Source: a phage
NCBI GenBank assembly: GCA_024613925.1
Contig: GCA_024613925.1_4713.1
DNA: 64,000 bases
Strand: one strand, 5' to 3'
The translations under genes and the position numbers were made by a program. The stretch's first letter is position 1. Each line of letters begins with the position of its first letter. A model generated the notes under the pieces. It did no database searches. It saw only the letters and a program-made list of their open reading frames with translations, and was not told the DNA's origin. Shown piece after piece: positions 1,751 to 46,191 of the stretch.

Positions 1751-1897
1751 CTGGTAGACTTCGGAAACCTTGAGGTTTAACCGTTCTGCCGTGATGTCGC
1801 TTTTAATAATCAGGGTGTCCGTTAGACGCTGCACGCTTTCCGAATAAAGCTGATAGTCAGTGTTGGACACGATCGGTCCTCCAAGGAGCCAGTGTAA

Positions 1898-4807: not shown

Positions 4808-4837
4808 ACGGATGTAAAAAAAATAACACATAGTTAA

Positions 4838-4872
4838 CCTTCTCCCCAACCCGATGAGGGAAGGGGAGAAGG
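4838..4872. terminator. GC-rich stem-loop of the conserved family, between convergent genes; candidate bidirectional terminator
   Basis: CCTTCTCCCC-AA-CCC-GATGA-GGG-AA-GGGGAGAAGG; A8 tract upstream, GGCTATGCG downstream. Confidence 0.5.
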
Positions 4873-4889
4873 GCTATGCGCTATTTAAT

Positions 4890-5165
4890 TTATTTCGAGG
4901 TTAACCACGATTCAATTGTGGTGAGTTTGCTTCTCAGTACGCGCCAACTAGGGTGTGGTGGGATCACAGCGCCTTTGTCGATTACGGTTAGCTGAACCTG
5001 GTACTTCTGTTGCATACGTGCTACCGTGTCGCTTATCGAGAGGAAAAGCTGGTAACGTTCATATGCCGTCAGTTCACTGTCCTGTTGAACTGCGTTGGCC
5101 GCTAACGTAATTTCGCGTAAGTCCTTTGCATCCACAGAGACGGTAATGAGTTTATATTGACTCAT
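4890..5165 (-). CDS. hypothetical small protein (91 aa)
   Basis: ORF with AAGGA 6 nt upstream of ATG (rc of cat 5163-5165). Confidence 0.5.
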   Translation of the reverse strand: MSQYKLITVSVDAKDLREITLAANAVQQDSELTAYERYQLFLSISDTVARMQQKYQVQLTVIDKGAVIPPHPSWRVLRSKLTTIESWLTSK

Positions 5166-5226
5166 ACGGTTTCCTTATCAACTAGGGTATTGCAGATACA
5201 ATACCCGTCGTCGGACGATAAGTTAA

Positions 5227-7785: not shown

Positions 7786-7819
7786 TTCTTACGATCCTTT
7801 TTATTTATTCGGTTAGGTG

Positions 7820-11330: not shown

Positions 11331-11428
11331 TGACTTATGTATCACGGTGCCGGATGAATGTCCGGTGCAATGAAACCATCCGCAACGTTGTCGTCAAGAA
11401 TATCGTCCAACGAAGCAGCTACGGTAGT

Positions 11429-13651: not shown

Positions 13652-13800
13652 TGAAAGTATCCTTTACAGAATTAACTTATATAAGTCGGTCGATAGACCA
13701 TAGCGTACACGCGTGCATGCGCCACTATAGTATCAGTAAACACTTACCGTTATTGAGGTCGTGATACAACACTAAAAATGCCGCATAACTTTTCCCTACG

Positions 13801-25656: not shown

Positions 25657-28600
25657 TTACTTGTAGGCACCGCAATGGGCTTTGATGAGGAAAAGCACCG
25701 CTTGCATCGGTTTATTGAACTGTTGCCATAACGTCAATGCCGGATGGAACAACCAATCTTCCAGGCCAAGAACAATGCCGTAGTTAATGACATTATTAAC
25801 ATCGTTCTCAATGTTGAATTCGCTATCCAGGAATTTATCGATTGAACGCAGGGTCTGCATGGCGTTGTCAGCAATAAGCCAAGCTTCATGCGCTTCACGA
25901 GCCGCACGCAGCACTGCCTCCAGTTCGCTGATAGTAGCTACCGGTAATTCCTCACTGGTGAGGTCGTCAGAAACCGTAAACTGGCGATTGATACCGGTGT
26001 AGATCCACTGCATCAGTTTCGCTGCTTCCTCGTTCGGGTTGTTACGCGTTGTCGCATAAGTCGCGCTCACCTTCACGATGTGCGTTTCACCAAGATACGC
26101 TTTGGAACCAACGCCTTTACGATCGCTGTTTTTCCACGGTTGTACGGTAGCGACCATGAGCTTGTCCCATTTCTGAATAGGAATACGCTTCAGACCAACA
26201 ACCGATCCAGCGGATGTTTCGGACTGGTTGCTCTTCCGCACTTCGCTGAGTTCACGATCGATAGCAACGATTAATTCACGCGTCATGTTACCAAGCATTT
26301 TGATTTCACCCAACGCAGCGATGAGCTTCTTCACATCGGTAACAGGTTCACCACCGATGGTAAGATGACGGATGAAACGTTTCAGAATAATCCGTTCCGC
26401 TGCTGGGTTACCGCGACGCGCTTTAGCCAATGCTTGCTGCGTTTCGGCGAACAGCTTATCCCATGGAGCCGTAGCGGCGGTATAGTAACGGTGGTTGGTT
26501 TCAATCCAGTTACCGATACGGTTGACCGCACTCTTAACGGTATCCATGAATCCTTCCATCGCAATTTCGGTAGCTTCGACGTTACCCTGGAAGTTATCAG
26601 GACCGATCTCACGTGCCGCTACCAGAATACCTTCCACAGCACTCACCGCATGGCGACCGATAGCCAGATTTCGCTGCGCTTCTTCAGCTCGCTCAACGAA
26701 TTCCACCACCGCAGGATCATCAACGATTTCCGCCTCAGCAACAACACGTGTACCGGCATCGCCTTCCAGCGTCTCGATCGTTACAACAGGATCGTTTTCA
26801 CCAGCAACATCCTGGTACTCTTCCTGTTTAAGATCACCGTTATCTGCCGCAGCGATAGCGTTCATTATGCGGATGGTGACCTCACCAAGTTCTTGCGAAA
26901 CGAATCCATAAACGGTGCAAGCAGTCGTTGCGAAGTTCATCAATGTGCGCGTACGCTGCGTGATGTAACGTGCGCCGGATTCGTTTTCCAGTTTATCGAG
27001 ATCCCGGATTAACTGCTCGGCTGTTTCTTGAAGCTGTGTTACCGCCTTCAAGAGATCTTCGTCGAACAGTTTCTTCGATGCATCAACTAACATATCAGCA
27101 TTGACGTTGGATGGTACCGTATCGCCTTGCTGTTTCATCTCGCTCAGCTCATCGCGGAACTTACGGATACCTTCTAAAGCGTCGTCAACGGAATATCCGA
27201 ATGCCTTAACGCCCGCCATTCCGAGAGCTGCTTTCATATCGCCAGGATGTTGAACTTGCTCGCCTTCCTTGCTGTTCTTTAACTCATCGAAATATTGACG
27301 TGATGCGTCCGCAATACGCTTGCTGTCTTTTACTGCGTTAACGATCTTATCAACCGATTTCGAATCGTTTGCAAGTAACGTGTCAAGCTTGTTCCATGCA
27401 ACATCAACTTTCTTCCCGTTGTTAGCCTCGCCCGGCGGTGGAAGCAGCTTCATCACTGGTGTTGTGCGTTGTTCTTTGGTGAGCTTACCAGCTTTCTCTT
27501 CGATTTTCTTTTTATTAACACCGAAAAGTTTTCTTAGGCGCGCCACGATGGCTTTTAAGAACTTCACAACCGCTTCGTAAACCGACTTCAGAATCTGTTT
27601 AAAGCGACCGGGTTTCTTGTCACCGTCTTCCAGATTAAGATCGCTGTTCAGTGCGACATCAAGCTGTTTGTACGATTCCATGATGTATTCGTCTTTGATT
27701 TCAGGACGAATCTCGAAGCTTTCCATCGGACCTTCAGCCGGACGGAATTCCATTTTCAGTTCGCCTTGCAGAGTAGGGTCGACGATGGCGATTGCTTCAC
27801 CCTGACCATCAGCGTTAAAGCGTTCAGCGTAACGAGTACGGCGAACAATAACGCTCTTATCCCCATCAAGACGACGTACCACCATGGTACCAGGAATGTA
27901 TGGTTGTTCTGTTTCAATGACGGTTACATCTGCCTCACCTTCACCGAGAATAACAGATGCGCGCTGCTCAACAACAGGAACATCTAACACACCACGGGCT
28001 TCCAGCTCTTGATGAATTTCGAACGACTCTTGTTTCAGATCTTCATCTTCTTCGTTTTCGTCGTCCTCATCATCGTCACCTTCGGTGTTTTCATCACCCT
28101 CGGTGGTTGTGTCGTCGGTGGCACCAGCGTCAGCGTCGGTGTTAGCAGGTTCTTCGGACGCAGGTTCGGTGGTGTTGTCCTCCGTGGACGACCCGTCAGT
28201 GTTATCGACATCAACATCACCTTGCAGTTCTGTTTCCTGAGCAACTGCTTCGGCTTTCTGCTCACCGGTATTACCGTCATTAGCGTCGACAACAGGTTGT
28301 TCGTCAGCGACGGTATCTTCAACCTTTTCTACTTTCTCCACGACACGTTTAATCACGGTGACTTTGATGGGTTCTTCCGTTGTTTTGGTTTCTGGCGTCA
28401 CCTCGGCTGCCGCAGCCGCTGTTTCAGCAATAGGTTCTGCTTTTTCCGGTTCGACGACATTACCCTTAACACCTTCGGTGGTTTCTGCAGGTTGCGCTGC
28501 CTGTTCGATTTGTGCCGGATTGGTTGGATCGATGGCATTAGCCGCATCCTGAATCTTGTTCTTCAGATTGTCGCGGTCAGCGCTAACGGTTGGGTCATTG

Positions 28601-29043
28601 GTTACTTTCGGTGCCGGTGTTTCGGTCGGTGCGTTTGCCGGATACGGGTTCTTCGGCTCTTCGCCAGGTGCGGTCGGTACCGCGATCAGAACGAACGGTT
28701 GAACGTCGTTACCGTCTTCCATGGTTACACCGCCGTTGCTCGGTGTGAAACGAATTCGCAAACTACCATCGATAGGACGGGTCACGATAACAGCACGCAC
28801 GACATCCTCACCGTTCTCATCCGTGCTACGAATCACGCGAACGGCATCATCAACGGTAGCCCCTTCCTCGAGCGTATCTGATTCGATCGTCGCTTCGATG
28901 CTGTCTGGCCGTGCCGCTGTAGGTAATGCGATCACTTGCTCTTCTTTATCAGTAGAAAGCGTTGCTTTGACTTCGATAGGTGTATCGCTGCTTTCCAGGT
29001 TAAGATGCGACTTACGCATCAGATCAGCTAACGATTTTTTCAT
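25657..29043 (-). CDS. large hypothetical protein (1128 aa) with a central acidic low-complexity region; virion-type candidate
   Basis: ATG with AGAGGA RBS; central region rich in D/E/T/G (for example GDDDEDDENEEDEDL). Confidence 0.55.
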   Translation of the reverse strand: MKKSLADLMRKSHLNLESSDTPIEVKATLSTDKEEQVIALPTAARPDSIEATIESDTLEEGATVDDAVRVIRSTDENGEDVVRAVIVTRPIDGSLRIRFTPSNGGVTMEDGNDVQPFVLIAVPTAPGEEPKNPYPANAPTETPAPKVTNDPTVSADRDNLKNKIQDAANAIDPTNPAQIEQAAQPAETTEGVKGNVVEPEKAEPIAETAAAAAEVTPETKTTEEPIKVTVIKRVVEKVEKVEDTVADEQPVVDANDGNTGEQKAEAVAQETELQGDVDVDNTDGSSTEDNTTEPASEEPANTDADAGATDDTTTEGDENTEGDDDEDDENEEDEDLKQESFEIHQELEARGVLDVPVVEQRASVILGEGEADVTVIETEQPYIPGTMVVRRLDGDKSVIVRRTRYAERFNADGQGEAIAIVDPTLQGELKMEFRPAEGPMESFEIRPEIKDEYIMESYKQLDVALNSDLNLEDGDKKPGRFKQILKSVYEAVVKFLKAIVARLRKLFGVNKKKIEEKAGKLTKEQRTTPVMKLLPPPGEANNGKKVDVAWNKLDTLLANDSKSVDKIVNAVKDSKRIADASRQYFDELKNSKEGEQVQHPGDMKAALGMAGVKAFGYSVDDALEGIRKFRDELSEMKQQGDTVPSNVNADMLVDASKKLFDEDLLKAVTQLQETAEQLIRDLDKLENESGARYITQRTRTLMNFATTACTVYGFVSQELGEVTIRIMNAIAAADNGDLKQEEYQDVAGENDPVVTIETLEGDAGTRVVAEAEIVDDPAVVEFVERAEEAQRNLAIGRHAVSAVEGILVAAREIGPDNFQGNVEATEIAMEGFMDTVKSAVNRIGNWIETNHRYYTAATAPWDKLFAETQQALAKARRGNPAAERIILKRFIRHLTIGGEPVTDVKKLIAALGEIKMLGNMTRELIVAIDRELSEVRKSNQSETSAGSVVGLKRIPIQKWDKLMVATVQPWKNSDRKGVGSKAYLGETHIVKVSATYATTRNNPNEEAAKLMQWIYTGINRQFTVSDDLTSEELPVATISELEAVLRAAREAHEAWLIADNAMQTLRSIDKFLDSEFNIENDVNNVINYGIVLGLEDWLFHPALTLWQQFNKPMQAVLFLIKAHCGAYK

Positions 29044-29058
29044 AAAGCGTTATTCCTC

Positions 29059-30165
29059 TTAAAAGTAATATTTCAGCGCCTCGCGAGAGACATCAAGCAT
29101 AGCCGCTGTTGAATTCGTAAAGAACTCGGCATAGCCCACAAGCGGCACCTTGATCCACGCGGTATACGCTGTAAGGTATCGAGAAAGGGCTACCATAGCA
29201 TCATCAGAAGCAGTAGTAACTGACAACTGACCTTGTTGACGATAAACGTCGTTAAGTTTTGCTTGTAGATTCCCCGCAATTTCGAGTAACTCGTTGGCGT
29301 ACTTTTTACGATGGTAACTAACCAGTAAATCAACACCCTTATTCACAGACTCGAGCAGAATACCAACTTGTTCTAATGTTGGCATTGTAACCACCATATC
29401 CCGTTCAACGGACGGTACATCCTGGACTTCAAACCGTGCGGATTGAATAGCAAGGGACTGTTGAATTGAACCAGAACCTGATGTGGTAACCTGATCGAGT
29501 CGCAGCATACGGTTGCCCAGTAACGTTACGTTGACGAGTCTCGATTCGTTCAGCGTACTGTAGACTTTATGCAATAACGTGTACGCATCACGGTTAATCA
29601 CATCGATTAATGCGGTATCCGTCTGTTTTAAGATAATGTCGAGCGCTCGATCTAACGTATTAGCGAACTGCTTGAAATCATTACGGAACGACGAAGACAA
29701 GAGATATTCAGCGATCGCTAAATTCTGCTTGTATAACGTATTCCCGGTTGTGAAATCGAACCCAAAACTGTTTCCATACCGTAGGTGCGGAGCCAGCGTT
29801 GACGAAGCTTCGAAGCTTTGCGCGATGGGTTTACGACCAACGGCTTTTGTGTAATGACGACGGATGTTACTGAGTTCGAGTTGTAGTGCGCGACTACGAT
29901 CGATAAACCGTGCGATAAACGCGGTAATGTTCCGCAACGTTGTCCAGATTGCATCGATGATAGCTTTGATGATTTTCATCGCAAGCTGATCGTACGATTC
30001 CATTGTGAGGAGATCAGCACTTTCTGTGGTATAACTGGTTGCTGGAATACCGCCTGCTTGCTGATAAATAAGCTGGTGAATTTGTCGTTGCGTTGCTGTC
30101 TCTGGCACAGGTAATGTTTTTAACAAGCTTAACGCTTGAATCTGTCCATCATAGGTCTGCAGCAT
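29059..30165 (-). CDS. head/inner-body-like paralog 1 of 5 (hypothetical)
   Basis: Internal ATG 30165 with GAGGA RBS (ORF-track start overlaps upstream gene). Shares with the next four genes a block of E-[S/G]-[F/Y]-[D/K/G] followed 15-20 aa later by a Trp-containing helix (TMESYDQ...IWTTL). Confidence 0.55.
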   Translation of the reverse strand: MLQTYDGQIQALSLLKTLPVPETATQRQIHQLIYQQAGGIPATSYTTESADLLTMESYDQLAMKIIKAIIDAIWTTLRNITAFIARFIDRSRALQLELSNIRRHYTKAVGRKPIAQSFEASSTLAPHLRYGNSFGFDFTTGNTLYKQNLAIAEYLLSSSFRNDFKQFANTLDRALDIILKQTDTALIDVINRDAYTLLHKVYSTLNESRLVNVTLLGNRMLRLDQVTTSGSGSIQQSLAIQSARFEVQDVPSVERDMVVTMPTLEQVGILLESVNKGVDLLVSYHRKKYANELLEIAGNLQAKLNDVYRQQGQLSVTTASDDAMVALSRYLTAYTAWIKVPLVGYAEFFTNSTAAMLDVSREALKYYF

Positions 30166-31450
30166 TGCTGGTTTCCTCAAGTTCGAGATGCGCGTCAAGA
30201 TAATCATTAAGACCATCGATGACGTCGCAGACAGTTAACAGGAATCGGGCAAAAGCAACCGCCTGGAAGCCGACGACGTTACGCGCGATACCTACACGTT
30301 GAACGATAGCGGATGCTGCGGTATCGCTGTTATCCATCTGTTGTAGCAAACGCTCGTAAGGTTGAATCCATTCGTCCTGGTCGGCAAGGCTTGCTTCAAG
30401 ACAACGCTTAAATTCCAACTGTCGTAACGTCGACCATAACGTACTTAATGCGTTGATGATCGCGCTGGTTCCGTCGATAACATCGTTTAACGGCAAGAAA
30501 CGGAATCCGTCTTTTGCTGATTGGAAAGATACGGCTTCCCACACAACGCTGAATTGCGTTCCTGTTGCGTCTTCGATGTTGTGTAATTTAAGATAGGAAG
30601 CACCAACAGGTACGTCAACGACCAGATCGTCTGTTCCGGTAGGCGTTAACGGCTTCTCGCATAACGCATCGTTGATGACCTCGAGAATATTCTCCCAACA
30701 GGCTTCGTTTTCTGCAGCGATACCTTCTTTGTTATCCGCTGATGGTGCTTTTAGTAGCTGCATTAATAACGGATCAAGTTGACGATGCCATGCTGCGAGG
30801 ATTCCTGTGTTCGTTACGATGTTTTCTGCGGTTTGTCGTAGATCAGCAATACTGCTTACGGCACCGCCTTTCGGATGAAGATATCGCCAGTTGTAGGGAA
30901 AGTTCTCCCAGAATGCGTTATCTTCATTAACATCGTATTCGGAAATAGTTTTCAACGCAGCCGCTTTCTTTAATAACGGCTTCACCTGACGAACGAATCG
31001 ACGATGACAACGATTGCAGATATCGATCGCGTAGCGGTACAATTCGTTCATGTAAAGCCATAATGCTCGGGTTGCTTCTTTTGCGGTCTTGTCAAAACTT
31101 TCCATGTTCAAGCTCATCCCGCCGGAAGTTTCCTCTTCCAGACCCTCGATGATGTGGTTTGGATCCATTCCCATTCCGGCTGCTGCGGTCGATGCGATAT
31201 GTTTGATCGTGCTGATATCGCGTTCTTCAACTTCAGCCATGTTTGGGACAATATCCAGCCTGAGTTTATTTAATGTTTGAAGGTGTTGTTCACCTTCTTT
31301 CATCACCGTGTTTGTTTCGTCGATTGAGTGAAACTGGTTCTCAATATTACTGGCATCGAGAATGTTGCCAGCGATACCGAACGATTCTACAGGTTCATCA
31401 TCAATCCCTTGAAACAACGATGTCATGGGTTGTTGTAACACGTTTTCCAT
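30149..31450 (-). CDS. head/inner-body-like paralog 2 of 5 (hypothetical)
   Basis: AGGAG RBS; acidic N-terminal ~110 aa, then NMESFDKTAKEATRALWLYM block. Confidence 0.55.
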   Translation of the reverse strand: MENVLQQPMTSLFQGIDDEPVESFGIAGNILDASNIENQFHSIDETNTVMKEGEQHLQTLNKLRLDIVPNMAEVEERDISTIKHIASTAAAGMGMDPNHIIEGLEEETSGGMSLNMESFDKTAKEATRALWLYMNELYRYAIDICNRCHRRFVRQVKPLLKKAAALKTISEYDVNEDNAFWENFPYNWRYLHPKGGAVSSIADLRQTAENIVTNTGILAAWHRQLDPLLMQLLKAPSADNKEGIAAENEACWENILEVINDALCEKPLTPTGTDDLVVDVPVGASYLKLHNIEDATGTQFSVVWEAVSFQSAKDGFRFLPLNDVIDGTSAIINALSTLWSTLRQLEFKRCLEASLADQDEWIQPYERLLQQMDNSDTAASAIVQRVGIARNVVGFQAVAFARFLLTVCDVIDGLNDYLDAHLELEETSNAADL

Positions 31451-31557
31451 TTGGGACTCCTACGTAGGAAAATCTTGGCGGGTGATCATGTCCGCCATTT
31501 ACCTTCTGAACCGTTGATTCAGAAGTCAAAAGATAACCGGATACCAACGCCATAAAA

Positions 31558-31590
31558 CCTTCCTCCAACCCAACAGGGAAGGAGGAAGGG
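31558..31590. terminator. conserved-family stem-loop between tandem minus-strand genes
   Basis: CCTTCCTCC-AA-CCC-AACA-GGG-AA-GGAGGAAGG; on the minus strand it is followed by TTTTATGG. Confidence 0.5.
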
Positions 31591-31599
31591 ATATGATGA

Positions 31600-32889
31600 T
31601 TATGCTTTTTCGGTTACAGCATCGAAATATTTCGCTGCGGCAAATACAGCATCTGCATATTGACGGTTAGCAACACGGAGAATCTTAGCTGCTAATACCG
31701 CGCTCAATCGCGCCATTTCAGAAATGGCGCTTATATAAGGGCGAACGGTTTCACGATCTGCTTCCGGTAGATTGTCGAGCATACCGTCCCATTTAGTTTT
31801 AATTTTCATACCGTTTAGTTTAGCGGTACGTTCGACAGTACTCGTTAAACTTTCCGTCTGGTTAAAATACGCAGGGTCAACAATACGAAACGCGTTAAGA
31901 TACGAAGTCAGTGCAGCTTTCAATTCGTCGTCGTTATTGAAAATGTTCGCGTTTTCGATACTACCGGTCGCGGTTTCTTCAACTTCGATCTGAATATTCT
32001 TCACGAGCGCGCAGGCCTTAATGGTATCTTTCTCAGCCAAAAGAGCGTCAAGACCTTTAACAACATATCGTTTCCCACCGCTTTCTGGTATTTTGAGTCC
32101 TTTTAACGCAGGCTTGATAGCGTAAATATAATCGTCCAGAATATCGGCAAGTGTCGTCAAATCAGTTAGTTTATTAACTTTCTTGTTAATGTCGTCAGTT
32201 TGGAGTAGTAAAAAAGCGGATGCTTGTGTGGATGCCGCTAACTGCTCGATATGTTTACGAACCTCCAACGCGTTAACCATTTTTGCGTTAGGGAACATGC
32301 TAATCATATTCCCGGTCGGTTTATTTAGTTGTTTGATGTGACGCTCGCCTTTATTTACAGCGGTTGCAACATCGGTAATTTTTTTATACGCTACCGCAAG
32401 GTTTTTGAAAAGCAGCTGAATCAGTTTACATAACTGTTCAGCCATGTTCGCAATGATTACCCAAACTGCGTATAACGCTTGTGCTGCGCGTTCTTTAAAG
32501 CCTTCCAGTACAATAGCCTGTCCTTCCACCAAACGATCGTCAGCTTGGAACATGTCTTCATCGGACATCCCCAGGTTTGCTGCTGACGTCGAAGCAATCT
32601 GACGGATAAGGGCGATGTCGCTCGCACGTGCTTCCGGGATCGTAGGCGCGATCATGTACGCGGTATCTTCCAGCGTTGCTGAGGTACGCACTGCAATTTC
32701 AGCCAGTTCGCTGGATTCATCGATCGTCTCGTCGGTGCGTCGAATCACCAACTCAACTTCGTCCTCTTCGATTTCTGCGTTGGGATCATTTTGCTCCGCT
32801 GGAATTGTCGCAAGAAGATCTTCGGCGCTCAGCAAAGCGAGTTCGAATGCGTTTTTATTGACGTTATCAAAAAGAGAGATGCGGGCCAT
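31600..32889 (-). CDS. head/inner-body-like paralog 3 of 5 (hypothetical)
   Basis: AAGGA RBS; acidic N-terminal region, then VLEGFKERAAQALYAVWVII block. Confidence 0.55.
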   Translation of the reverse strand: MARISLFDNVNKNAFELALLSAEDLLATIPAEQNDPNAEIEEDEVELVIRRTDETIDESSELAEIAVRTSATLEDTAYMIAPTIPEARASDIALIRQIASTSAANLGMSDEDMFQADDRLVEGQAIVLEGFKERAAQALYAVWVIIANMAEQLCKLIQLLFKNLAVAYKKITDVATAVNKGERHIKQLNKPTGNMISMFPNAKMVNALEVRKHIEQLAASTQASAFLLLQTDDINKKVNKLTDLTTLADILDDYIYAIKPALKGLKIPESGGKRYVVKGLDALLAEKDTIKACALVKNIQIEVEETATGSIENANIFNNDDELKAALTSYLNAFRIVDPAYFNQTESLTSTVERTAKLNGMKIKTKWDGMLDNLPEADRETVRPYISAISEMARLSAVLAAKILRVANRQYADAVFAAAKYFDAVTEKA

Positions 32890-32898
32890 GTTAGTTCC

Positions 32899-34215
32899 TT
32901 AACCTTTGGTATAAGCTTTAACGAGAGTGTTGATAAATGAGGTCAATGCACGAAGATACTGGTAAGCGAACTGGTTTTGAATACGGTTCTCTTTACCGCA
33001 AAGCAGAATCGCGCGCTTAACGAGTTTAGGATAGATCTCGACGTATGGCTGGTAGCTTGCATCAAAATTCTGCTCGTTGAAGCGTTTCATGGTGATTTCC
33101 TGGATGCGCTCCATGGTGCGAATTTTATTGCGAGAGAACATCTCAGAGAAAGCACGTCCGCGTTTTGTTACCATCAACAGATCTTTCGCGAACGTCAGTT
33201 GTCGAACGCTACGCAAATCGTCAGGTGTCGGTAGGACGTACGTTTCCGGATCGCTATCCCATTCAACATCTTCAACGACAATATCCAAGTCGAGGTAACG
33301 TTTAACCGCATCGATGATATTGTCTTTTGACGCATCGAATTCTTTCAAGAAGACTGCACCGTTGATGTAACGGATACGTTTCCCGGAAACCGTTGGAGTG
33401 ATAACGTCAGTACCTTCCACGGAACCGCGATTTTCCAGTGTCGATTTGACAGCGTGCAAGAAAGACAGATAATCAACGGGAAGTTTTTCGACCTTATCTA
33501 AATGGAAGTCGATGATGTTTAATCCTAACCCATCAATAACCGAATAACCATCCGATTTAAGGAACATCTGATTGAAGGTATCGATGTTGCTTTTCAGCGT
33601 GTCTACACCACCAACGCTGTTACGGTTAGGGAAAAGCGTCCGCCACTCCGCTTTAAACGCAACTTCTTTATTTTCCTCGTATTTGCCTTTAGGCATTTGT
33701 TCGAGGGCTGCAACGGCTTTTTGAAAATTGCGCGTCTCGTCGTAAACAAGACGGGTAAGCTTCTCGAAGGCTGCTGCCAAGGTCAGGGCAATATCAACAA
33801 TGATATCCCAGATCTTTTTCATGGCTTTTACAACGGTGTCCTTAAACCCTTCAACAACCAAAGCTTCTCCAACCTCAACACGATCGGTTGGCGTCAGCAA
33901 TGCTTCGGAGGGTAGACCCAGAGCAATCGATGCGGATTCTTGCACGTTACGAACTAATGCAACGTCACTGTAGTTAGCCGATTCGATAGTCGGAGCAACA
34001 TCAAAACTGATTTCCCGTAATGCGGCAACAGCAGGGAAAGCACGATCAAGTGCATCTTCATGTTCGTCGATTGTCGCTAAACGTAATTCAACGCCATCGG
34101 CATCGATAACTTCAGCGGTAGGCTCCACAGCAAGCGCCTCAGCAACAATAGGATCTTTTTCAAACGCCTCAAGGCTAATATCGCCTTGGGTCGCAAATAA
34201 CGGTATGTGTACCAT
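32899..34215 (-). CDS. head/inner-body-like paralog 4 of 5 (hypothetical)
   Basis: ORF-track start is TTG 34239; ATG 34215 has GGAGA RBS. Acidic N-terminal region, then VVEGFKDTVVKAMKKIWDII block. Confidence 0.55.
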   Translation of the reverse strand: MVHIPLFATQGDISLEAFEKDPIVAEALAVEPTAEVIDADGVELRLATIDEHEDALDRAFPAVAALREISFDVAPTIESANYSDVALVRNVQESASIALGLPSEALLTPTDRVEVGEALVVEGFKDTVVKAMKKIWDIIVDIALTLAAAFEKLTRLVYDETRNFQKAVAALEQMPKGKYEENKEVAFKAEWRTLFPNRNSVGGVDTLKSNIDTFNQMFLKSDGYSVIDGLGLNIIDFHLDKVEKLPVDYLSFLHAVKSTLENRGSVEGTDVITPTVSGKRIRYINGAVFLKEFDASKDNIIDAVKRYLDLDIVVEDVEWDSDPETYVLPTPDDLRSVRQLTFAKDLLMVTKRGRAFSEMFSRNKIRTMERIQEITMKRFNEQNFDASYQPYVEIYPKLVKRAILLCGKENRIQNQFAYQYLRALTSFINTLVKAYTKG

Positions 34216-34263
34216 GTGTTGTCTCCAGTAATGATTCAAAAGATAAACCTGAGCGGCATAGAA

Positions 34264-34295
34264 CCCTCTCCCTTCCCTTACGGGTTGGGAGAGGG
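34264..34295. terminator. conserved-family stem-loop with the 14-nt core in the inverted orientation
   Basis: CCCTCTCCC-TT-CCC-TTAC-GGG-TT-GGGAGAGGG; flanks (GCATAGAAC ... GATATATC) match copy 19665-19696, whose core is the reverse complement. Confidence 0.55.
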
Positions 34296-34317
34296 GATAT
34301 ATCAGTTTATTAACTGA

Positions 34318-35655
34318 TTACTGCTGTGCTTTCTTTGCTTCCAGAGCTTCCTTTTTCGCGTAGTATTTCGACTGGATGTGCCCTTTCAGCATTTTAGCAA
34401 CGCCGTCCAGAACAGCGTTACCTGCCTGAACACCGTATTTCATCAGACCGACCTGCGGGTTCACGTAGCAGGAACGTGCGTCTTTCAGTGCAGACAGTAC
34501 AGCTTGAACACGCTGTTTTTCCTGAGCGGAAACATCGCCTTTCTTAGACAGATCGGCTTCCATATCGTCACCGAATTTAACAGCGTCTTTGAAGCCCTGG
34601 GATTTCTTACCGATGGTGCCTTTCAGTGCAATCAGTTTATCAGCCAGTACATCAACGCTGTGAACCGCAGCAGTCAGTTGATTCTGAGACAGAACAGGCG
34701 CTTCAACTTCTTTCGCTTCGCCGGAACGTTCCCAGGTTACTTTACCGTCGTTGGTTTTGAAACCCCAACCAGCCGGGCCAGTAACATCTGCGATCGCCGG
34801 TGCGTTCAGTTTATCAGTGTATTCGGTGTGGGACTTAGATTTGACTAACCCAACGAATTTATCAGCACGATCGTCAGCAGCCTTCATTGCTTTCTCGAAG
34901 GTGTCAGCGATTTTAGTCGCTGCGGTAACCAGATCGTCACCACCGATATAGCCAGAAACGCCGCTACCCAGAGTAACTTTGGCATTTTCAGCAACGCCAA
35001 TACTCTTGCCGATCATTTCTTTCAGTTTAGCAGCACGTGCTTTCAGTTTGGTCGCGCCGTCGAAGATGCGATCCATGAACTTCACGAAGGTTTCCCAGGA
35101 AGTTTTCAGGAAGTTCTTGATGGTTGCCCACAGTTTCTGCCACCATTTTTGTTCTTCCAGGAAGATCATGTTGGTCGCATCGTAACGGGAAGCGGAACCA
35201 CCGAAGCTTTCGAAGGACGGCATGGTTTCCGGCATTTTGAAACCGATAGTACCACACAAACGTTTCAGATTACGCATGTGTTCCTGAGCGGTTTGTGCAG
35301 ACATACCGCCGTCTTTCAGGTAGCTTTCGGTTGCAACAACGGTTTCCGTCAGTTCATCCATGGCTTCATCCATGGCTTCTGCGGTTTCGTCGTCTTTTGC
35401 AATTTCGATAACAACAGCATCAACCTGCTCGATATCACCACGAACTTCGATAGCCAGTTCGGTTTCAGCTGCGGTATCTTCAGCGATTTCAGCACGTTCG
35501 GTCAGTTCAGCCACAACGTTTTCATCCGCTGCTGCAGCATCAGCTGCCGGTTCTGCTTCAACGGTTGCCGCTGCATCCGGATCGATCTCAGCAGCCAGTT
35601 GAACCAGCTGTGCGTTAGATGGATTTGCGACAAGACGATCAAAAATAGAAGGCAT
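34318..35655 (-). CDS. head/inner-body-like paralog 5 of 5; abundant head protein candidate (445 aa)
   Basis: Strong codon bias (long antisense shadow ORFs), TGTAAAGGA RBS region like the capsid-like gene, A/E/D-rich N-terminal ~100 aa, then SFESFGG...WWQKLW block. Confidence 0.55.
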   Translation of the reverse strand: MPSIFDRLVANPSNAQLVQLAAEIDPDAAATVEAEPAADAAAADENVVAELTERAEIAEDTAAETELAIEVRGDIEQVDAVVIEIAKDDETAEAMDEAMDELTETVVATESYLKDGGMSAQTAQEHMRNLKRLCGTIGFKMPETMPSFESFGGSASRYDATNMIFLEEQKWWQKLWATIKNFLKTSWETFVKFMDRIFDGATKLKARAAKLKEMIGKSIGVAENAKVTLGSGVSGYIGGDDLVTAATKIADTFEKAMKAADDRADKFVGLVKSKSHTEYTDKLNAPAIADVTGPAGWGFKTNDGKVTWERSGEAKEVEAPVLSQNQLTAAVHSVDVLADKLIALKGTIGKKSQGFKDAVKFGDDMEADLSKKGDVSAQEKQRVQAVLSALKDARSCYVNPQVGLMKYGVQAGNAVLDGVAKMLKGHIQSKYYAKKEALEAKKAQQ

Positions 35656-35719: not shown

Positions 35720-36250
35720 TTAAAAGCCCTTAAAACCCGGTGCCATAGGTTGCCCAAACACCGCATTCAAAGTACATATGATGTCCTGGATGCCATTGTC
35801 CCAATGGAGCCAAGTACGCACCATCTCTTCGTCTGACAACGTGATATAACTCATAAGTTTACCGCTGCTTTCCAGACGTTGGTGCGAACTTAACGACTGA
35901 CGATCCGACCAGTTATCAATCAATTGACCCGCAATCTGAACGTTCGTGTCTCGTCTACCCGTGTGAATGAACCGTAGTGTATCACGGATAAACTCCAGAC
36001 TGGTGAAGTTCAGATTTGGGTTATGGCTGTTCATTTCCACCCAATCGGTGATAGGGTACATCAAACGATAAAGGGTAGAAAGAACCTGACGTTCATATTT
36101 CCAGTCATCGAGAGGAGTACCGTCGACCAGACGCTGATACAAACTAACAACGTCGCGATCGTAGTTCTCCTGGCGTTTTACACCGTTAACCGGAAATCCA
36201 AAGAACCCGGTACCGTATAACGTTAAAGGGACGTCACGAAGTGCATTCAT
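35720..36250 (-). CDS. hypothetical protein (176 aa)
   Basis: ORF; ATGA start/stop overlap with the upstream gene. Confidence 0.55.
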   Translation of the reverse strand: MNALRDVPLTLYGTGFFGFPVNGVKRQENYDRDVVSLYQRLVDGTPLDDWKYERQVLSTLYRLMYPITDWVEMNSHNPNLNFTSLEFIRDTLRFIHTGRRDTNVQIAGQLIDNWSDRQSLSSHQRLESSGKLMSYITLSDEEMVRTWLHWDNGIQDIICTLNAVFGQPMAPGFKGF

Positions 36251-42594: not shown

Positions 42595-45500
42595 TTATCT
42601 TACGTTATTGCTATTCTGCTGTTCGCTGAACCAACCGTACACCTTGAGATCGGTACCGTATTTCAATGCGATATACGCATTGAGCGCAGCACAGAACAAA
42701 GACGCGAATGCCCATATCAGCGAAGGATCAACATCTTCCGTTACCACCGGGAGAGTATTATCCGGTTCCCACGATGGAGAACCGTCCATGAACGTCGTGT
42801 ACCATTCCCGCCGTTGTTCTTCGGTGGTAAAGTCGCTATGGGGTTCCAATGCTTCTTTTGCCAAACGTCGATATTCGAACATATGCGTTGCTAAAGCCGA
42901 TGAGTTACCAGATTCGCCTTCATAGTTCGGATCCACCGCATAACAGAGTTCTGTTGAATCTAACAAAGCAACCGCCTGTGTGATGCTGTCGGCAGTGCCT
43001 GCACCATAGAGCTCGATAGACTGCGAAAGCTTCTCACAGAACGCATTTAACGCGGCAGGATTGGACACCTGAAGGTCAAGGCCTAATGTCCACGGATAGT
43101 TACTGAACACACCCGTAAACCGCGGCATGACACCCAACAGATGTTGTCCGATTACGGCACGGTTATAAACAGCCCGGTTATAGACTTGAAACGCAGCCTC
43201 CAAGGCTTGGTTATAATGACGACGAAGTTCGTCACGCGAGTTGCGGAATCTGTTTGCCGCAAGACTCGTGGCTGCGACGCTACAAACATCGTAATTGGTG
43301 GACGAGAGCACAGTTTCGTTAAGATCGAACGATTCCTGTTTCAACGATCCGCTAACCGCTGCTGCTTCGCTGTTTGCTTTATCGACAACTGTACTCAAAG
43401 CGTTGATGTAACGTTTCGCTCGGACTTCCAACCATTGTGCAATGCCGAGAATATCCACCGCAGCTTTAGCAAGATCGCGTGCATTCACGATTTCGTTCTT
43501 CAACGCCCCTAAACCTTTATTCTCAGGCGAAGAGGCTTGTTGACGAATCATGCTGTTCAACATGGTAAGCAGATTATCCAACTCATGTCCACTGACCTTG
43601 TTACGCGCATCGGTAATCGGCCCTTGCAGGAATTTACGGCAACCGTCGTTGTATCGAATCAGTTTATCCACATCGATCGATTCGTTCGTAGATTCCTTGA
43701 ACTGATCCTTCAATTCTTCACGGTAGTCATGGATTTCACTTGCGAGATTATCGATAGTGATACCGTTATGTCCAAGAAGAACTTTATTGAAGCTACCTTT
43801 CTCGAATGCAAGAGCAAGACCTTCACGAATCTTAGCGAGTTTATCCTGATCGAGTTCACGACCGTTCGATAGCTCTTTCACTTCCGAGCTGATTAGTGCC
43901 GCAACGTTACCCAGATTGTCGGTAACCCCTTTGAACGCTCCCGACCAGATCGTTCCTGCTTCAGCATATTTCGCAATGGTCTGAATACCGACGGTGTGCA
44001 GCGACGCTAAACGTTTCTTCGTGCCTTCGGTAAGCAGTGCGTCTTTAGCTCGCGTAAGTTGACTGTTATTAGCTTCCGCCTGCTGAATCGCCGCTTTCGC
44101 ACTTCCATTACGCCAGCTCTTAACCAACCAATCAACCAAACGTTTTAAGATGTTGACGGTGTATTCCATCGTCCGCCGTAACGTTTCCCACGCGCTTTCT
44201 GCGGTATAGATGCCGTACCCTTCCATCTTCAACGCTTTCAAGCTTGTTTGACGTGCCAACCATTCTACCGTTGCAGAACAAACGTTTACTAATGCTTCCA
44301 GGTAGTTGTAATAGACGTCTGTTGCGGCCGTTTCGTTGAGCTTTGAATGCAGATAAAACTGATCGTAAAGTTCGTCGTCATCGCCGAAGGCATCGTAGTT
44401 CCACAGCTCAGTATCGCAGCCTGTGCCGCAGAAGACGTCTGCTGTTGTAAACTCTTTAAGCGCTTTAGCCGCATCATTCGTCAGGAATTTACCTGTTTCA
44501 ACTACATCATCGACGTTAAGCTTGGGGAGTTCATCAGTAACTGGCTCTTGCAACATTAACGTGTTGAAGAATGCGTTGTACTTGTATCCGAGCCATTTTG
44601 GATAACTGCTTTCAGGTATCGTAGACAACGGCTTGATTTTCTTGGCTTCAGCCAGCGTGTCTTTTGCAACCTGATATTGGTTTTCCCCGGCCTTGATACG
44701 ACGTAATGCTTTTTCTTCCAACTGCTGGAGTTTGGCATGCCGTGCTTGTGCGGGAGCTTCAACAAGTTTTTGTACCGACCGCACTGCAGAAATCGCTTCT
44801 TTTAATACGATCATCGGCATACGAACTTTGCCGTCGTCAAAACTAAGAGCCCGAGCGACACGCTTACTTACGACAGGTTTGTCGTGGATATTTCGTTCCA
44901 CCCACGATTTGTTTGCGTAAGTTTGGGTGAGCTGCTGCTGGATATTTTCAAGGTATTTCCAGCTTTTGGACGCTTTGCTATCCAAAAGCGGATTCGGTCC
45001 CTTCTTATCGAAAAGTTTCAGAATCGGATCAAAGAAACCTTCCTGTACGAGATCGATACACGTGTAACCATCAGCCGCTTCGATTTCCTCTTGGGTTTTA
45101 TCCCAGAGTTGTTCACTGTGTACCGCACGAGCTGTTTCTGATACGGACATAATAACTTCAGTGACAACCTCAGCGTAAGACAATACTGCCCGCACCCACT
45201 CTACCAACATACGCTGATAGATAACACGTTGACATTGACAACGTGTGATGATGGCGAGATAACTTACGCTGTCGAGTTGTTCATTCGTACGAACATCCTC
45301 AACTTGTTCAATTAGTTGTTTAACTAACTGTGCTGTCTCTGGGTAATCGTGGACGACGTCGCGAATAACTTGCGAAGCATACACTGCGGTACCAAGGGCG
45401 AGATGGAGTTTGGTTGCATCCCACTCTTTTTCTGCTGTTGCCGGATTGTTCGGTATTAGGTAACCGATATCGTCGAAATATGGCTTAATAACATCGATAT

Positions 45501-46191
45501 TAGTCTTACTCTTAGTCGGTATCAGCGTATCATCAATGTTGCTTTGGTCTGGTGTTAATGCTAGCATACCCTTGAGAATTTGAGTATCAGCAGCGTATAA
45601 CGAAGTTAATGCTTCAGTTACGTCAGCGAGATCGATAATAGGCGACCATACCTTCAAGAGTTTACTTTCGTATTTCTCAATCGCGATTTCGATATCTTCC
45701 TTTACATCGGGATGATCGATAAGACGACCTACCGTCTGTTGTATCTCGGCAAATCGGTTGACATGATTTTGAGTCAATGCGGTAAAATCGTCAACGTACG
45801 ACGCATTGTCTTCAAGACGCGTAAGTTCCTGCTCCAGAAGATCTTTTACTTGCGTGGCGGATGCGTTTCTCAACTGTTCCCCGATAATCGCGATGGCTTT
45901 ATCGACAACACGGCAGGCTTCATTGAAACCGGTTGTTGAAGGTAACTCGGTCCATAATGCCAGCGGCTTACCTTCCATTGCGTCAGGAAGGGAATATGAC
46001 AACATTGCTAGTTGTTGACGTGATACCTGTTTGTCACGATGTAACGTTTCTTTCAACGCCAGAAGCTCATCAAGACCCACACTGCTAGGGATCGTGGGAT
46101 GTGATACGGCGTTGATATTTTCTGTCAATGACTCAAGAACCAATAAACCATTTTCAGCGGAAGATAACCCTGCTTTAAGGTATTTGTTCAT
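42595..46191 (-). CDS. giant hypothetical protein (1198 aa), predominantly helical by composition
   Basis: ATG with GGAG RBS immediately after hairpin 46207-46237; no catalytic motif recognised. Confidence 0.55.
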   Translation of the reverse strand: MNKYLKAGLSSAENGLLVLESLTENINAVSHPTIPSSVGLDELLALKETLHRDKQVSRQQLAMLSYSLPDAMEGKPLALWTELPSTTGFNEACRVVDKAIAIIGEQLRNASATQVKDLLEQELTRLEDNASYVDDFTALTQNHVNRFAEIQQTVGRLIDHPDVKEDIEIAIEKYESKLLKVWSPIIDLADVTEALTSLYAADTQILKGMLALTPDQSNIDDTLIPTKSKTNIDVIKPYFDDIGYLIPNNPATAEKEWDATKLHLALGTAVYASQVIRDVVHDYPETAQLVKQLIEQVEDVRTNEQLDSVSYLAIITRCQCQRVIYQRMLVEWVRAVLSYAEVVTEVIMSVSETARAVHSEQLWDKTQEEIEAADGYTCIDLVQEGFFDPILKLFDKKGPNPLLDSKASKSWKYLENIQQQLTQTYANKSWVERNIHDKPVVSKRVARALSFDDGKVRMPMIVLKEAISAVRSVQKLVEAPAQARHAKLQQLEEKALRRIKAGENQYQVAKDTLAEAKKIKPLSTIPESSYPKWLGYKYNAFFNTLMLQEPVTDELPKLNVDDVVETGKFLTNDAAKALKEFTTADVFCGTGCDTELWNYDAFGDDDELYDQFYLHSKLNETAATDVYYNYLEALVNVCSATVEWLARQTSLKALKMEGYGIYTAESAWETLRRTMEYTVNILKRLVDWLVKSWRNGSAKAAIQQAEANNSQLTRAKDALLTEGTKKRLASLHTVGIQTIAKYAEAGTIWSGAFKGVTDNLGNVAALISSEVKELSNGRELDQDKLAKIREGLALAFEKGSFNKVLLGHNGITIDNLASEIHDYREELKDQFKESTNESIDVDKLIRYNDGCRKFLQGPITDARNKVSGHELDNLLTMLNSMIRQQASSPENKGLGALKNEIVNARDLAKAAVDILGIAQWLEVRAKRYINALSTVVDKANSEAAAVSGSLKQESFDLNETVLSSTNYDVCSVAATSLAANRFRNSRDELRRHYNQALEAAFQVYNRAVYNRAVIGQHLLGVMPRFTGVFSNYPWTLGLDLQVSNPAALNAFCEKLSQSIELYGAGTADSITQAVALLDSTELCYAVDPNYEGESGNSSALATHMFEYRRLAKEALEPHSDFTTEEQRREWYTTFMDGSPSWEPDNTLPVVTEDVDPSLIWAFASLFCAALNAYIALKYGTDLKVYGWFSEQQNSNNVR

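Follow-up and report, generated by a model that had tools for sequence, protein, structure and literature searches.

Five adjacent minus-strand genes coding for proteins of 368–445 aa (G1 to G5, numbered by increasing coordinates) were found at positions 29059–35655 of the window, i.e., the whole 64,000-nt stretch of phage DNA analysed, which confirms the coordinates of the initial annotation. The window is closely related to Escherichia phage Goslar, with 95–98% nucleotide identity (95.4% over the five genes and 97.6% over the first 25 kb of the window). Judged by sequence, the five genes are orthologues of Goslar gp54–gp58. The window genes pair one-to-one and in identical order with Goslar_00053–00058 (gp53–gp58 of MK327938), their proteins being 93–99% identical. 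The best database relatives reached 93% aa identity for gp58, 96% for gp54 and 99% for gp57. The phage studied here differs from Goslar as a separate isolate or variant, with gp58 as the most diverged member (93% aa identity of G5 to Goslar gp58), and the final ~19 residues of the window gp58 were unlike those of every relative found. A sixth paralogue, gp53, was located outside the initially annotated coordinates. In the Goslar GenBank record MK327938, all these genes are still named hypothetical proteins.

Table 1. Positions of the genes, predicted protein regions and putative signals of the array.
Feature	Position (nt)	Strand	Remarks
gp53 orthologue, sixth member	25657–29043	-	1128 aa
gp53 C-terminal module (aa 741–1128), PF12699-like	25657–26823	-	hhalign
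gp53 junction motif codons	26548–26556	-	translation
G1, Goslar gp54 orthologue, minor paralogue, short non-acidic N-terminus	29059–30165	-	368 aa
G1 junction motif codons	29992–30000	-	translation
G2, Goslar gp55 orthologue, minor paralogue	30149–31450	-	433 aa
G2 junction motif codons	31094–31102	-	translation
G2 region equivalent to the G5 N-terminal region	31103–31450	-	
Related hairpin module after G3	31545–31590	-	sequence read directly
G3, Goslar gp56 orthologue, minor paralogue	31600–32889	-	429 aa
G3 junction motif codons	32497–32505	-	translation
G3 region equivalent to the G5 N-terminal region	32506–32889	-	
G4, Goslar gp57 orthologue, minor PF12699-related paralogue	32899–34215	-	438 aa; 446 aa from upstream TTG
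G4 junction motif codons (E122-G-F)	33844–33852	-	translation
G4 region equivalent to the G5 N-terminal region	33853–34215	-	
GC-rich hairpin followed by TTCTATG, downstream of G5	34255–34300	-	sequence read directly
G5, Goslar gp58 orthologue, bulk PF12699 internal head/ejection protein	34318–35655	-	445 aa
G5 E149-S-F, family site A ([A/S]-[L/M]-E↓S-F-G-G)	35203–35211	-	predicted cleavage after E149
G5 N-terminal region (aa 1–148)	35212–35655	-	short leader ending AAE23, acidic long helix, conserved AQEHMR helix
phiKZ gp91 vertex-binding protein homologue (Goslar gp59)	35720–36250	-	PF25618 at 1e-46

The order of genes in the array corresponds to that of phiKZ gp87–gp97 and SPN3US gp48–gp54. 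In phiKZ, SPN3US and a metagenomic relative (L007), the array of internal head proteins comes after the succession gp87-88-89-90-91. The gp91/gp59 homologue lies directly upstream of the window array in transcription order, in the same position as in phiKZ, SPN3US (gene order) and the loci L007 and L009. The stems of the two hairpins found within the array showed compensatory changes in the alignment (CCCTCTCCC/GGGAGAGGG vs CCTTCCTCC/GGAGGAAGG), and the Goslar record has an annotated terminator in the spacer downstream of gp56. For G1, the 368-aa start was preceded by a GAGG ribosome-binding site, in contrast to an alternative 385-aa start, which had none.

The five genes had been proposed to be paralogous. 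BLASTP joined only G2, G3 and G4 (G4–G3, 2e-18; G2–G4, 3.5e-10; G2–G3, 2.5e-8), with a similarity limited to the N-terminal ~200 aa, and by itself detected no kinship of G1 and G5 with this group; the proposal was upheld by profile methods. G5 matched PF12699 with an E value of 1.2e-19 (71.3 bits; cut-off 27), and G4 (3.5e-5, N-terminal residues 37–162 only) and G1 (3.7e-4, residues 70–376 collinear with profile positions 89–384) remained below the curated cut-off. Among the near-identical orthologues of G4 in the database, about half have a precomputed PF12699 match. No Pfam match was obtained for G3 itself, and G2, with neither a Pfam match nor an hhalign match as a single sequence, is by these comparisons the weakest family link of the paralogues. 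The gp58 profile retrieved 1766 family clusters, and an alignment of 147 representatives was used for hhalign and the site statistics. In hhalign, G1 matched the family with 91% probability alone and 98% with its orthologues added (E 1.8e-13, 304 columns), the G2–G4 group profile with 96.9% (E 1.6e-10, 130 columns) and the gp53 C-terminal module with 95.8% (E 6.7e-9, 229 columns); the middle region of gp53 (aa 361–760) gave no significant hhalign match to the family. In Foldseek, the AF2 model of G5 (pLDDT 82.6) yielded matches to 89 jumbo-phage proteins (E<=1e-3). Many of these carry the name internal head protein or virion structural protein, and the matches to models with these names spanned the full length of G5.

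The C-terminal ~250 aa of G2–G4 matched the family weakly (19.7%, E 1.2e-3), in line with the restriction of the BLASTP similarity to the first ~200 aa, of the confident group-profile fit to 130 N-terminal columns and with the lack of a Pfam match for G2 and G3. Such a pattern could arise if gp55–gp57 were modular fusions, in which an N-terminal targeting/propeptide module and the first helix are shared with PF12699 and the remaining ~250 residues are unrelated cargo. We regard this as very unlikely. The C-terminal match, though weak, is collinear and maps to the last helix of the family, a low-stringency alignment runs collinearly through 422 columns, and the G2 model, itself of low confidence (pLDDT 38.5), has the same order of elements as G5 (long post-motif helix, short strands, long C-terminal helices). 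G2 and G3 also have nearly full-length counterparts in L007 (26% identity for G2; 28%, E 5e-26 for G3), and a common PF12699 fold is predicted by AF3 for gp54–gp57 (10.64898/2026.04.21.720040). In all likelihood, the locus represents the operon for internal head proteins (PF12699, ‘phiKZ_IP’) in a Goslar-like enterobacterial chimallivirus, with five mid-sized paralogues and the adjoining large gp53. The cluster has already been described in Goslar, which makes this an ordinary find of known identity.

PF12699 internal head proteins are packed in the capsid and enter the host along with the DNA. The Goslar preprint describes the products of the same genes as virion proteins of the PF12699 family or fold, among which gp58 dominates: per virion, ~2150 copies of gp58 and ~330 of gp53 are reported (Table S4 therein), and gp54, gp55, gp56 and gp57 are given at ~70, ~50 (AF3-predicted PF12699 fold), ~60 and ~50 copies, respectively (10.64898/2026.04.21.720040). 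Published mass spectrometry thus finds the Goslar orthologues in virions, which speaks against an absence of these proteins from the particle. Goslar gp58 is also injected into the host (PMC10541120). Codon usage agreed with the initial remark that the last gene is biased like the capsid gene (Nc 33.0 for G5 vs 30.2 for the capsid gene; 50–56 for G1–G4 and 43.4 for gp53). The CAI of G5 relative to the capsid gene, 0.67, was the top value in the window, and this capsid-like usage suggests that gp58 is made in very large amounts. Gene identity, family membership, synteny, virion presence, and the abundance and injection of gp58 are established here or in the literature. Taken together, Pfam, hhalign, synteny, the G5 model and Goslar virion mass spectrometry bear out the annotation of phiKZ-type internal head or inner-body-like paralogues with N-terminal propeptide regions.

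An acidic N-terminal extension had been ascribed to each gene. It was present in G2–G5 (116–148 aa), with a net charge of -16 to -19 in the 100 residues preceding the motif described below, but not in G1, where 55 residues carry a net charge of about -3. For G5, the net charge of aa 1–120 was -27, and one helix (residues 47–114) was modelled in the N-terminal region. In the family, this region has a median length of 114 aa and a median net charge of -19, and the 60 aa following site B (see below) have a median charge of +5.

The block E-[S/G]-[F/Y] just ahead of a Trp-containing helix was found, as first noticed, in all five genes: LLTME56↓SYD in G1 (W at +18), LNME117↓SFD in G2, IVLE129↓GFK in G3 and LVVE122↓GFK in G4 (W at +14 in each), and PSFE149↓SFGG in G5 (W171/172/176), the arrow marking the bond after Glu. 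The same motif is borne by gp53 (IAME830↓GFM...W). It does not occur by chance, because gp53–gp58 contain 11 such tripeptides vs 1.46 ± 1.2 in composition-preserving shuffles, of which 0/5000 reached at least 11. The G5 motif is the family site A, placed in a predicted loop (residues 137–153) and aligned with the cleaved AQE-124↓SY of SPN3US gp54; among 147 representatives, it has E at P1 in 99%, A/S/G at P3 in 100%, S at P1' in 86% and F/Y at P2' in 99%. According to hhalign, the motif Glu of G1, G3, G4 and gp53 falls on a second family site, site B (A-x-E↓x-I-K-E..W; E in 93% of the 147 representatives), which corresponds to the maturation sites AQE-125↓GW of SPN3US gp53 and ARE-137↓SL of SPN3US gp54. 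The S/A/G-x-E tripeptides had been considered too short to be diagnostic; this caution can now be improved on, as the E-[S/G]-[F/Y] block itself coincides with conserved Glu sites cleaved in SPN3US.

The SPN3US cleavages were mapped by mass spectrometry (gp53 AQE-125↓GWKE; gp54 ARE-137↓SLWDD and AQE-124↓SYG; PMC10052503), and because the block E-[S/G]-[F/Y] falls on the family's two near-invariant Glu positions, which align with them, it is very probably a prohead-protease maturation site. An active prohead protease is to be expected, since the first 157 residues of the Goslar capsid protein are without density (10.64898/2026.04.21.720040); the capsid protein sequence contains GCE150↓S and SEE153↓L shortly before residue 158. 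The block might instead be a structural signature in gp54–gp57, such as a cap or hinge that precedes the long amphipathic helix, with these proteins packaged unprocessed or cut elsewhere. The P3 residues of G1–G4 (T, N, V and V) break the S/A/G rule of phiKZ and differ from the A of SPN3US, and the gp53 peptide EIRPEIKDEYIMESYK, observed in Goslar virions, runs across E456↓S457, which shows incomplete cutting at that copy of the motif. Moreover, the site-B position lies within helix 154–217 of the G5 model, where G5 has Leu, and G1 has almost no propeptide to remove. Nevertheless, this reading appears unlikely when set against the two Glu columns, which match three mapped SPN3US cleavages and have S/A/G at P3 in 91–100% and E at P1 in 93–99% of the 147 representatives. 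Among the proteins of the window, 16 copies of the extended motif [M/Q/L/V]-E-[S/G]-[F/Y] were counted vs 2.4 expected, with a concentration in the head proteins gp53–57, gp64 and gp65; this distribution is more readily explained by a recognition site than by a cap tied to one fold. A hydrophobic P3 is, in addition, accepted by T4-type prohead protease relatives (L/I-x-E).

Fully tryptic peptides of the gp58 N-terminal region were weak in the published table (areas 4880 and 9180 vs a gp58 total of 1.08e7 from 87 peptides), as cleavage would predict, but this is a weak comparison because, among the rows listed, the mature-region peptides are all missed-cleavage products of similarly low area (168–7920). 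Their detection in virions means that removal is incomplete or that fragments are retained. The acidic N-terminal regions may persist after cleavage as capsid-lining ‘cement’ arms on the inner face of the shell, giving two functional products per gene, a proposal compatible with maturation cleavage. It finds a precedent in phiKZ, where gp93 residues 14–84 and gp162 residues 18–137 are bound between hexamers and begin exactly at mapped cleavage sites (PMC11297242). The gp58 peptides AEIAEDTAAETELAIEVR and DGGMSAQTAQEHMR in purified Goslar virions have the low intensity that a sub-stoichiometric retained fragment would give, and gp53 N-terminal peptides (aa 84–96 and 202–220) were clearly found. 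However, no fragment of gp58 is part of the Goslar capsid model, with the caveat that the icosahedrally averaged map reaches only 6.3 A. G5 is modelled with a single long acidic helix (47–114) rather than the beta-arm/helix-loop-helix N-terminus of phiKZ gp93, and the propeptides of the SPN3US counterparts are broken down into several pieces that are for the most part cleared. On balance, retained arms seem a tentative option, more doubtful than not.

The array resembles phiKZ gp92–gp97 (with gp162 and gp163) in Pfam family, in its position after the gp87–gp91 homologues and in being composed of mid-sized paralogues with a large one last (gp97, 816 aa; gp53, 1128 aa), although sequence identity is only about 15%. 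The phiKZ paralogues are cut by the prohead protease at S/A/G-x-E, a rule from which the gp54–gp57 junctions deviate at P3, and most of them are injected. Several phiKZ members are present at ~100–200 copies, whereas Goslar has one dominant member. The abundant SPN3US ejection proteins gp53 and gp54, which make up paralogue family A, share family and locus position, begin with acidic propeptides 125 and 137 residues long, and are very abundant, as is gp58; their AQE↓GW, ARE↓SL and AQE↓SY cleavages align with the Goslar-type motif. SPN3US differs in having two paralogues vs six in the Goslar-like phage and a strict A at P3, and it is not known to be a nucleus-forming chimallivirus. The T4 proteins IPI, IPII and IPIII are small, carry a short N-terminal sequence that directs them to the core of the prohead, are cut by the prohead protease after Glu (L/I-x-E), and are retained with the DNA and injected. 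They offer an analogy only, as kinship in sequence or fold is not expected; their leaders comprise 10–19 aa without a ~100-aa acidic region, and the proteins are much smaller. T4 internal proteins are discussed in PMC5694885.

The array is homologous and syntenic to gp93, gp95 and gp97, the inner-body candidates of phiKZ, and the Goslar virion contains thousands of copies of its proteins. Both points would also agree with an ordered spool-like ‘inner body’ for DNA winding, the classical proposal for phiKZ, with this structural role rather than a post-injection activity as the main function. We consider it improbable: an inner body was seen in phiKZ by low-resolution EM, but no such density is present in Goslar micrographs, the asymmetric map or classifications after symmetry expansion, and a recent asymmetric map of the phiKZ virion at ~10 A, cited in the same work, likewise lacks it (10.64898/2026.04.21.720040). 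In addition, gp58 and most phiKZ paralogues exit the capsid and remain associated with the early-infection vesicle and the nucleus.

For the phage described here, we infer where the precursors are cut, what becomes of their N-terminal pieces and which role, if any, follows injection, as part of the following model. The genes would be expressed late alongside the head genes, gp58 in very large amounts and the others as minor products. Each precursor would consist of a short N-terminal leader ending x-x-E, in gp55–gp58 an acidic, mostly helical region of ~100 aa, and a basic Trp-containing amphipathic helix opening a ~300-aa helical domain. During prohead maturation, a prohead protease of the phiKZ gp175/SPN3US gp245 type, which cuts after Glu, would cleave the conserved junction, in gp58 after E149 (S-F-E↓S-F-G-G) and in gp54–gp57 and the gp53 C-terminal module after the E of E-[S/G]-[F/Y]. 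The helical domains would remain in the DNA-filled head and would then pass into the early-infection vesicle together with the ejected genome.

The five-gene array was 95.4% identical at the nucleotide level to Escherichia phage vB_EcoM_Goslar, a nucleus-forming jumbo phage of 237 kb from the family Chimalliviridae, and the first 25 kb of the window was 97.6% identical. Besides Goslar, the search of phage records revealed no nucleotide match to the window. The five genes of the array and the neighbouring gp53 corresponded one-to-one with genes of the Goslar record, in which gp53–gp58 are all annotated as hypothetical proteins, and the Goslar names are used for the orthologues in the table below. 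Transcriptionally upstream of the array, homologues of phiKZ gp91 (PF25618, 1e-46), gp90, gp89, gp88 and gp87 were located, and the array directly followed them on the same strand as the gp89–gp91 homologues. The resulting order, gp63 and gp62 followed by gp61, gp60, gp59 (the PF25618 protein) and gp58 to gp53, mirrored that of phiKZ (gp87 and gp88, then gp89–gp91 and gp92–gp97, with gp97 large), of SPN3US (gp48 and gp49, then gp50–gp52 and gp53–gp54) and likewise of L007, a metagenomic relative locus.

A search for related loci anchored on gp59 retrieved near-identical Goslar-type contigs only. Contigs of this type, 237–248 kb long, were present in numerous assemblies from public databases that are labelled as Escherichia coli, Salmonella enterica, Shigella flexneri or Enterobacter hormaechei. 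Their presence in so many differently labelled assemblies suggests that the isolates carry, or are contaminated by, lytic Goslar-type jumbo phages, and that the enterobacterial host range is wide.

Features of the window, with predicted cleavage positions or candidate motif positions
Feature	Position	Strand	Length (aa)	Glu preceding the predicted or candidate cut	Remark
598-aa ORF	7820-9616	-	598	E33 (DVE↓SYVDRLW)	candidate protease substrate
Antisense ORF	11354-13654	+	766		over the whole major capsid gene
Major capsid gene	11429-13651	-	740
gp53 orthologue	25657-29043	-	1128	E830	Goslar record
Window equivalent of Goslar gp53 residues 444-459	about 27670-27714	-			virion peptide EIRPEIKDEYIMESYK
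gp54 orthologue	29059-30165	-	368	E56	Goslar record
gp55 orthologue	30149-31450	-	433	E117	Goslar record
Module after gp56	31545-31590	-			GC-rich hairpin
gp56 orthologue	31600-32889	-	429	E129	Goslar record
gp57 orthologue	32899-34215	-	438	E122	Goslar record
Module after gp58	34255-34300	-			GC-rich hairpin
gp58 C-terminal codons (~19)	34318-34380	-			tail GHIQSKYYAKKEALEAKKAQQ
gp58 orthologue	34318-35655	-	445	E149	Goslar record
gp64	42595-46191	-		E384, E657, E953	candidate protease substrate
gp65	46273-49068	-		E120, E568	candidate protease substrate

The initial annotation described five contiguous paralogues, each with an acidic N-terminal extension ahead of a shared E-[S/G]-[F/Y] block. 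This description holds once it is corrected on three points, namely the acidity of gp54, the number of members and the way in which paralogy is recognized. The gene calls and lengths were reproduced, the 368-aa start of gp54 being preceded by GAGG and the start of the longer ORF having no ribosome-binding site. The block was found in all five genes ahead of a Trp-containing amphipathic helix, directly in gp54–gp57 and at a distance of 17–27 residues in gp58. Across gp53–gp58, 11 copies of the motif were counted versus an expectation of 1.46 when each protein was shuffled (none of 5000 shuffles reached 11), and the form whose P2 residue is hydrophobic or Gln occurred 16 times in the proteins of the window versus 2.4 expected. 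Acidic N-terminal regions were confirmed for gp55–gp58 (116–148 aa, with a net charge of -16 to -19 in the 100 residues before the motif) but not for gp54, in which 55 residues carry a net charge of about -3. BLASTP joined only gp55, gp56 and gp57, over the first ~200 residues, so the relationship of all five requires profile evidence, and a sixth member, gp53, lies beyond the array as originally delimited.

The codon bias of gp58 did match that of the capsid gene (Nc 33.0 vs 30.2), with CTG making up 90–96% of Leu codons and CGT 77–92% of Arg codons in both; gp54–gp57 were unbiased (Nc 50–56) and gp53 was intermediate (43.4). The capsid gene is overlapped along its whole length by an antisense ORF longer than the real gene, most likely a product of its extreme codon bias, which strips stop codons from the antisense strand.

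The search with PF12699 (phiKZ-like phage internal head proteins; curated cut-off 27 bits) revealed a whole-length match of gp58 above the cut-off (71.3 bits, 1.2e-19) and two matches below it but significant, one to the N-terminal part of gp57 (23.6 bits, 3.5e-5) and one collinear over nearly the full length of gp54 (20.2 bits, 3.7e-4). No match was detected in this search for gp55, gp56 or gp53. A precomputed PF12699.14 match was present on some near-identical database orthologues of gp54 and gp57. Apart from Goslar and a single weak hit to a Pseudomonas phage, tblastn with gp58 matched none of 50,697 phage records; the family is too diverged for retrieval in this way. The word-indexed protein search gave only two close relatives for gp54 and, among the matches listed for the gp55–gp57 alignment, only gp57 orthologues at least 94% identical.

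When a representative library of 1.84 billion proteins was searched with a profile built from gp58 and related sequences, 1766 clusters were retrieved, and gp58 with 146 of them formed a family alignment of 147 sequences. In profile-profile comparison with this alignment, gp54 and its orthologues reached 98.0% (E 1.8e-13, 304 columns), gp55–gp57 with two L007 orthologues 96.9% (E 1.6e-10, 130 columns, N-terminal only) and the C-terminal 388 residues of gp53 95.8% (E 6.7e-9, 229 columns); the C-terminal halves of gp55–gp57 were weak but collinear (19.7%). A second PF12699-like module considered in the middle of gp53 (aa 361–760, around YIME456↓SYK) was not supported (8.7%, the spanning peptide being seen uncut).

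From the family alignment, AlphaFold2 gave a confident model of gp58 (pLDDT 82.6, pTM 0.78), which matched 89 viral models in Foldseek at E<=1e-3, with TM scores of 0.5–0.7 to jumbo-phage internal head proteins. These included proteins of 201phi2-1, PhiPA3, Psa21, Noxifer, PhiEaH1 and Ea35-70 that bear the name of internal head protein or of virion structural protein, often several per phage. The model of gp55 from a six-row alignment was unusable (pLDDT 38.5); gp54–gp57 share the PF12699 fold according to AlphaFold 3 (10.64898/2026.04.21.720040). The PF12699 matches, profile homology, gp58 fold and gene order thus support the proposal that these are phiKZ-type internal head proteins, and the possibility that they have no profile similarity to known ones falls away.

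The checks suggested in the initial annotation have largely been carried out by others, and both the operon and this type of phage have been described before. The Goslar preprint reports that gp53 and gp58 carry PF12699, that the locus is syntenic with phiKZ gp92–gp97 and that purified virions contain all six proteins by LC-MS/MS, at ~2150 copies per virion for gp58, ~330 for gp53, ~70 for gp54, ~50 for gp55, ~60 for gp56 and ~50 for gp57 (10.64898/2026.04.21.720040). Absence from virions, raised earlier as an argument against the assignment, is therefore contradicted by mass spectrometry of the Goslar orthologues. No inner-body density was observed in Goslar micrographs, the C1 map or symmetry-expanded classes (10.64898/2026.04.21.720040), so the label of inner-body protein comes from homology alone. 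During packaging the phiKZ paralogues undergo proteolysis, and the majority of them are injected. Among Goslar gp53–gp58, injection into the host has been reported for gp58 only, the gp58-sfGFP fusion being packaged, injected and kept with the early-infection vesicle beside the phage nucleus (PMC10541120). The role of PF12699 proteins is described by the preprint authors as an unsolved question (10.64898/2026.04.21.720040).

Two Glu columns were nearly invariant in the 147-sequence alignment. Site A reads [A/S]-[L/M]-E↓S-F-G-G (Glu 99%, A/S/G at P3, two residues before the Glu, 100%, Ser 86%, F/Y 99%), and site B, 17 residues downstream, reads [A/S]-[L/M]-E↓x-[I/V/L]-K-E...W (Glu 93%, A/S/G at P3 91%). 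The region upstream of site A has a median of 114 residues and a net charge of -19, and the median charge is +5 over the 60 residues that follow site B; [S/A/G]-x-E also occurs within the first 40 residues in 145 of the 147 members, mostly at positions 11–18. Cleavages mapped by mass spectrometry in SPN3US are AQE125↓GWKE in gp53 and ARE137↓SLWDDIK and AQE124↓SYG in gp54 (PMC10052503). In the alignment with gp58, E125 and E137 fall on site B and E124 on site A, and ARE111↓SY of SPN3US gp53 conforms to site A. At the sequence level the family columns thus coincide with these mapped cleavages, and the shared block is very probably the maturation cleavage junction.

In gp58, a canonical site A (S-F-E149↓S-F-G-G) lies in a predicted loop and Leu occupies the site-B column, and hhalign aligned the Glu of the shared block with site B in gp54, gp56, gp57 and the C-terminal module of gp53. 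All of gp54–gp57 carry Glu at the aligned position, but their P3 residues (T, N, V and V) differ from the prohead-protease motifs of phiKZ (S/A/G-x-E) and SPN3US (A-x-E). In the Goslar map, residues 1–157 of the capsid protein are missing (10.64898/2026.04.21.720040), which implies an active prohead protease, and GCE150↓S and SEE153↓L are located just upstream of residue 158.

From the published Goslar virion peptide table, the listed peptides whose sequences begin with A to E were compared with the predictions. The N-terminal tryptic peptides of gp58 were weak (areas 4880 and 9180 vs 1.08e7 for the protein total of 87 peptides), which is only suggestive of processing, because the few mature-region peptides listed, with missed cleavages, had similar areas (168–7920). 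Among the listed A to E peptides, the N-terminal tryptic peptides predicted for gp56 and gp57 did not occur; one mature-region peptide of each protein was found, but two further predicted mature peptides of gp57 were missing as well. N-terminal peptides of gp53 were clearly present. The gp53 peptide EIRPEIKDEYIMESYK has a non-tryptic N-terminus after F443, two residues past the ME441↓SF motif, and spans E456–S457 uncut through ME456↓SY, so processing near the first gp53 motifs does not follow a simple cut-after-Glu pattern. Since N-terminal fragments of phiKZ gp93 and gp162 are kept after cleavage as capsid-lining arms (PMC11297242), the acidic regions of gp55–gp58 may, by analogy, be partly retained instead of discarded.

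Related intergenic modules follow gp58 and gp56, each with a GC-rich hairpin whose stems show compensatory changes (CCCTCTCCC/GGGAGAGGG vs CCTTCCTCC/GGAGGAAGG), then TT(C/T)TATG(C/G)CG and GGTT(T)ATCTTTTGA. The module plausibly combines a terminator with a phage late-promoter-like TATG element behind it and could set high gp58 and low gp57–gp54 expression. Scans for sigma-70 promoters and terminators were at or below shuffle expectation; Goslar-type phages rely on RNA polymerases of their own.

Compared with Goslar-type relatives, gp58 was the most diverged protein of the array (84–93% amino acid identity across about 50 variants), with a C-terminal tail unlike that of every relative found; gp57 orthologues among the matches listed were 94–99% identical. 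In L007 (10001–19668), a more distant relative with 43% identity in gp58, the array consists of four genes of middle size (449, 463, 453 and 387 aa) and a 1380-aa gene, whereas the window has five and an 1128-aa gene, so the copy number of the array varies between lineages. A duplication appears to have taken place in the Goslar lineage, because gp56 and gp57 both best match the single 463-aa L007 gene.

A wider reading, in which the protease site [M/Q/L/V]-E↓[S/G]-[F/Y] marks a head-internal regulon, gp65 is kin to the family and an acidic helix acts as a mask, is considered unlikely as a whole. Its candidate substrates are gp53 (up to four sites), gp54–gp58, gp64 and gp65, perhaps with the 598-aa product as well. 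The motif does recur beyond the array in gp64, gp65 and the 598-aa ORF, which makes these head or virion proteins candidates for further protease substrates. In gp65, the N-terminus ahead of E120 (LVQE↓GFVAK...W) is mildly acidic and E568 (TME↓SFG) precedes a hydrophobic helix. The vertex-binding protein gp65/phiKZ gp86 may be distantly related in structure to the PF12699 proteins; by sequence its similarity to the family was weak (19%, E 1.2e-3), and SPN3US gp47 showed no relation to either the family profile or gp65. In the precursors, the acidic helix of ~100 aa may mask the basic Trp helix, and cleavage would then expose a DNA- or membrane-binding surface acting in the capsid or in early-infection vesicle formation.

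The kind of element is not new and the practical gain is modest, namely that six genes of a Goslar variant so far labelled hypothetical receive an annotation. The predicted cleavage positions would define the mature, injected species. A chimallivirus virion contains thousands of copies of PF12699 proteins and injects them together with its genome.
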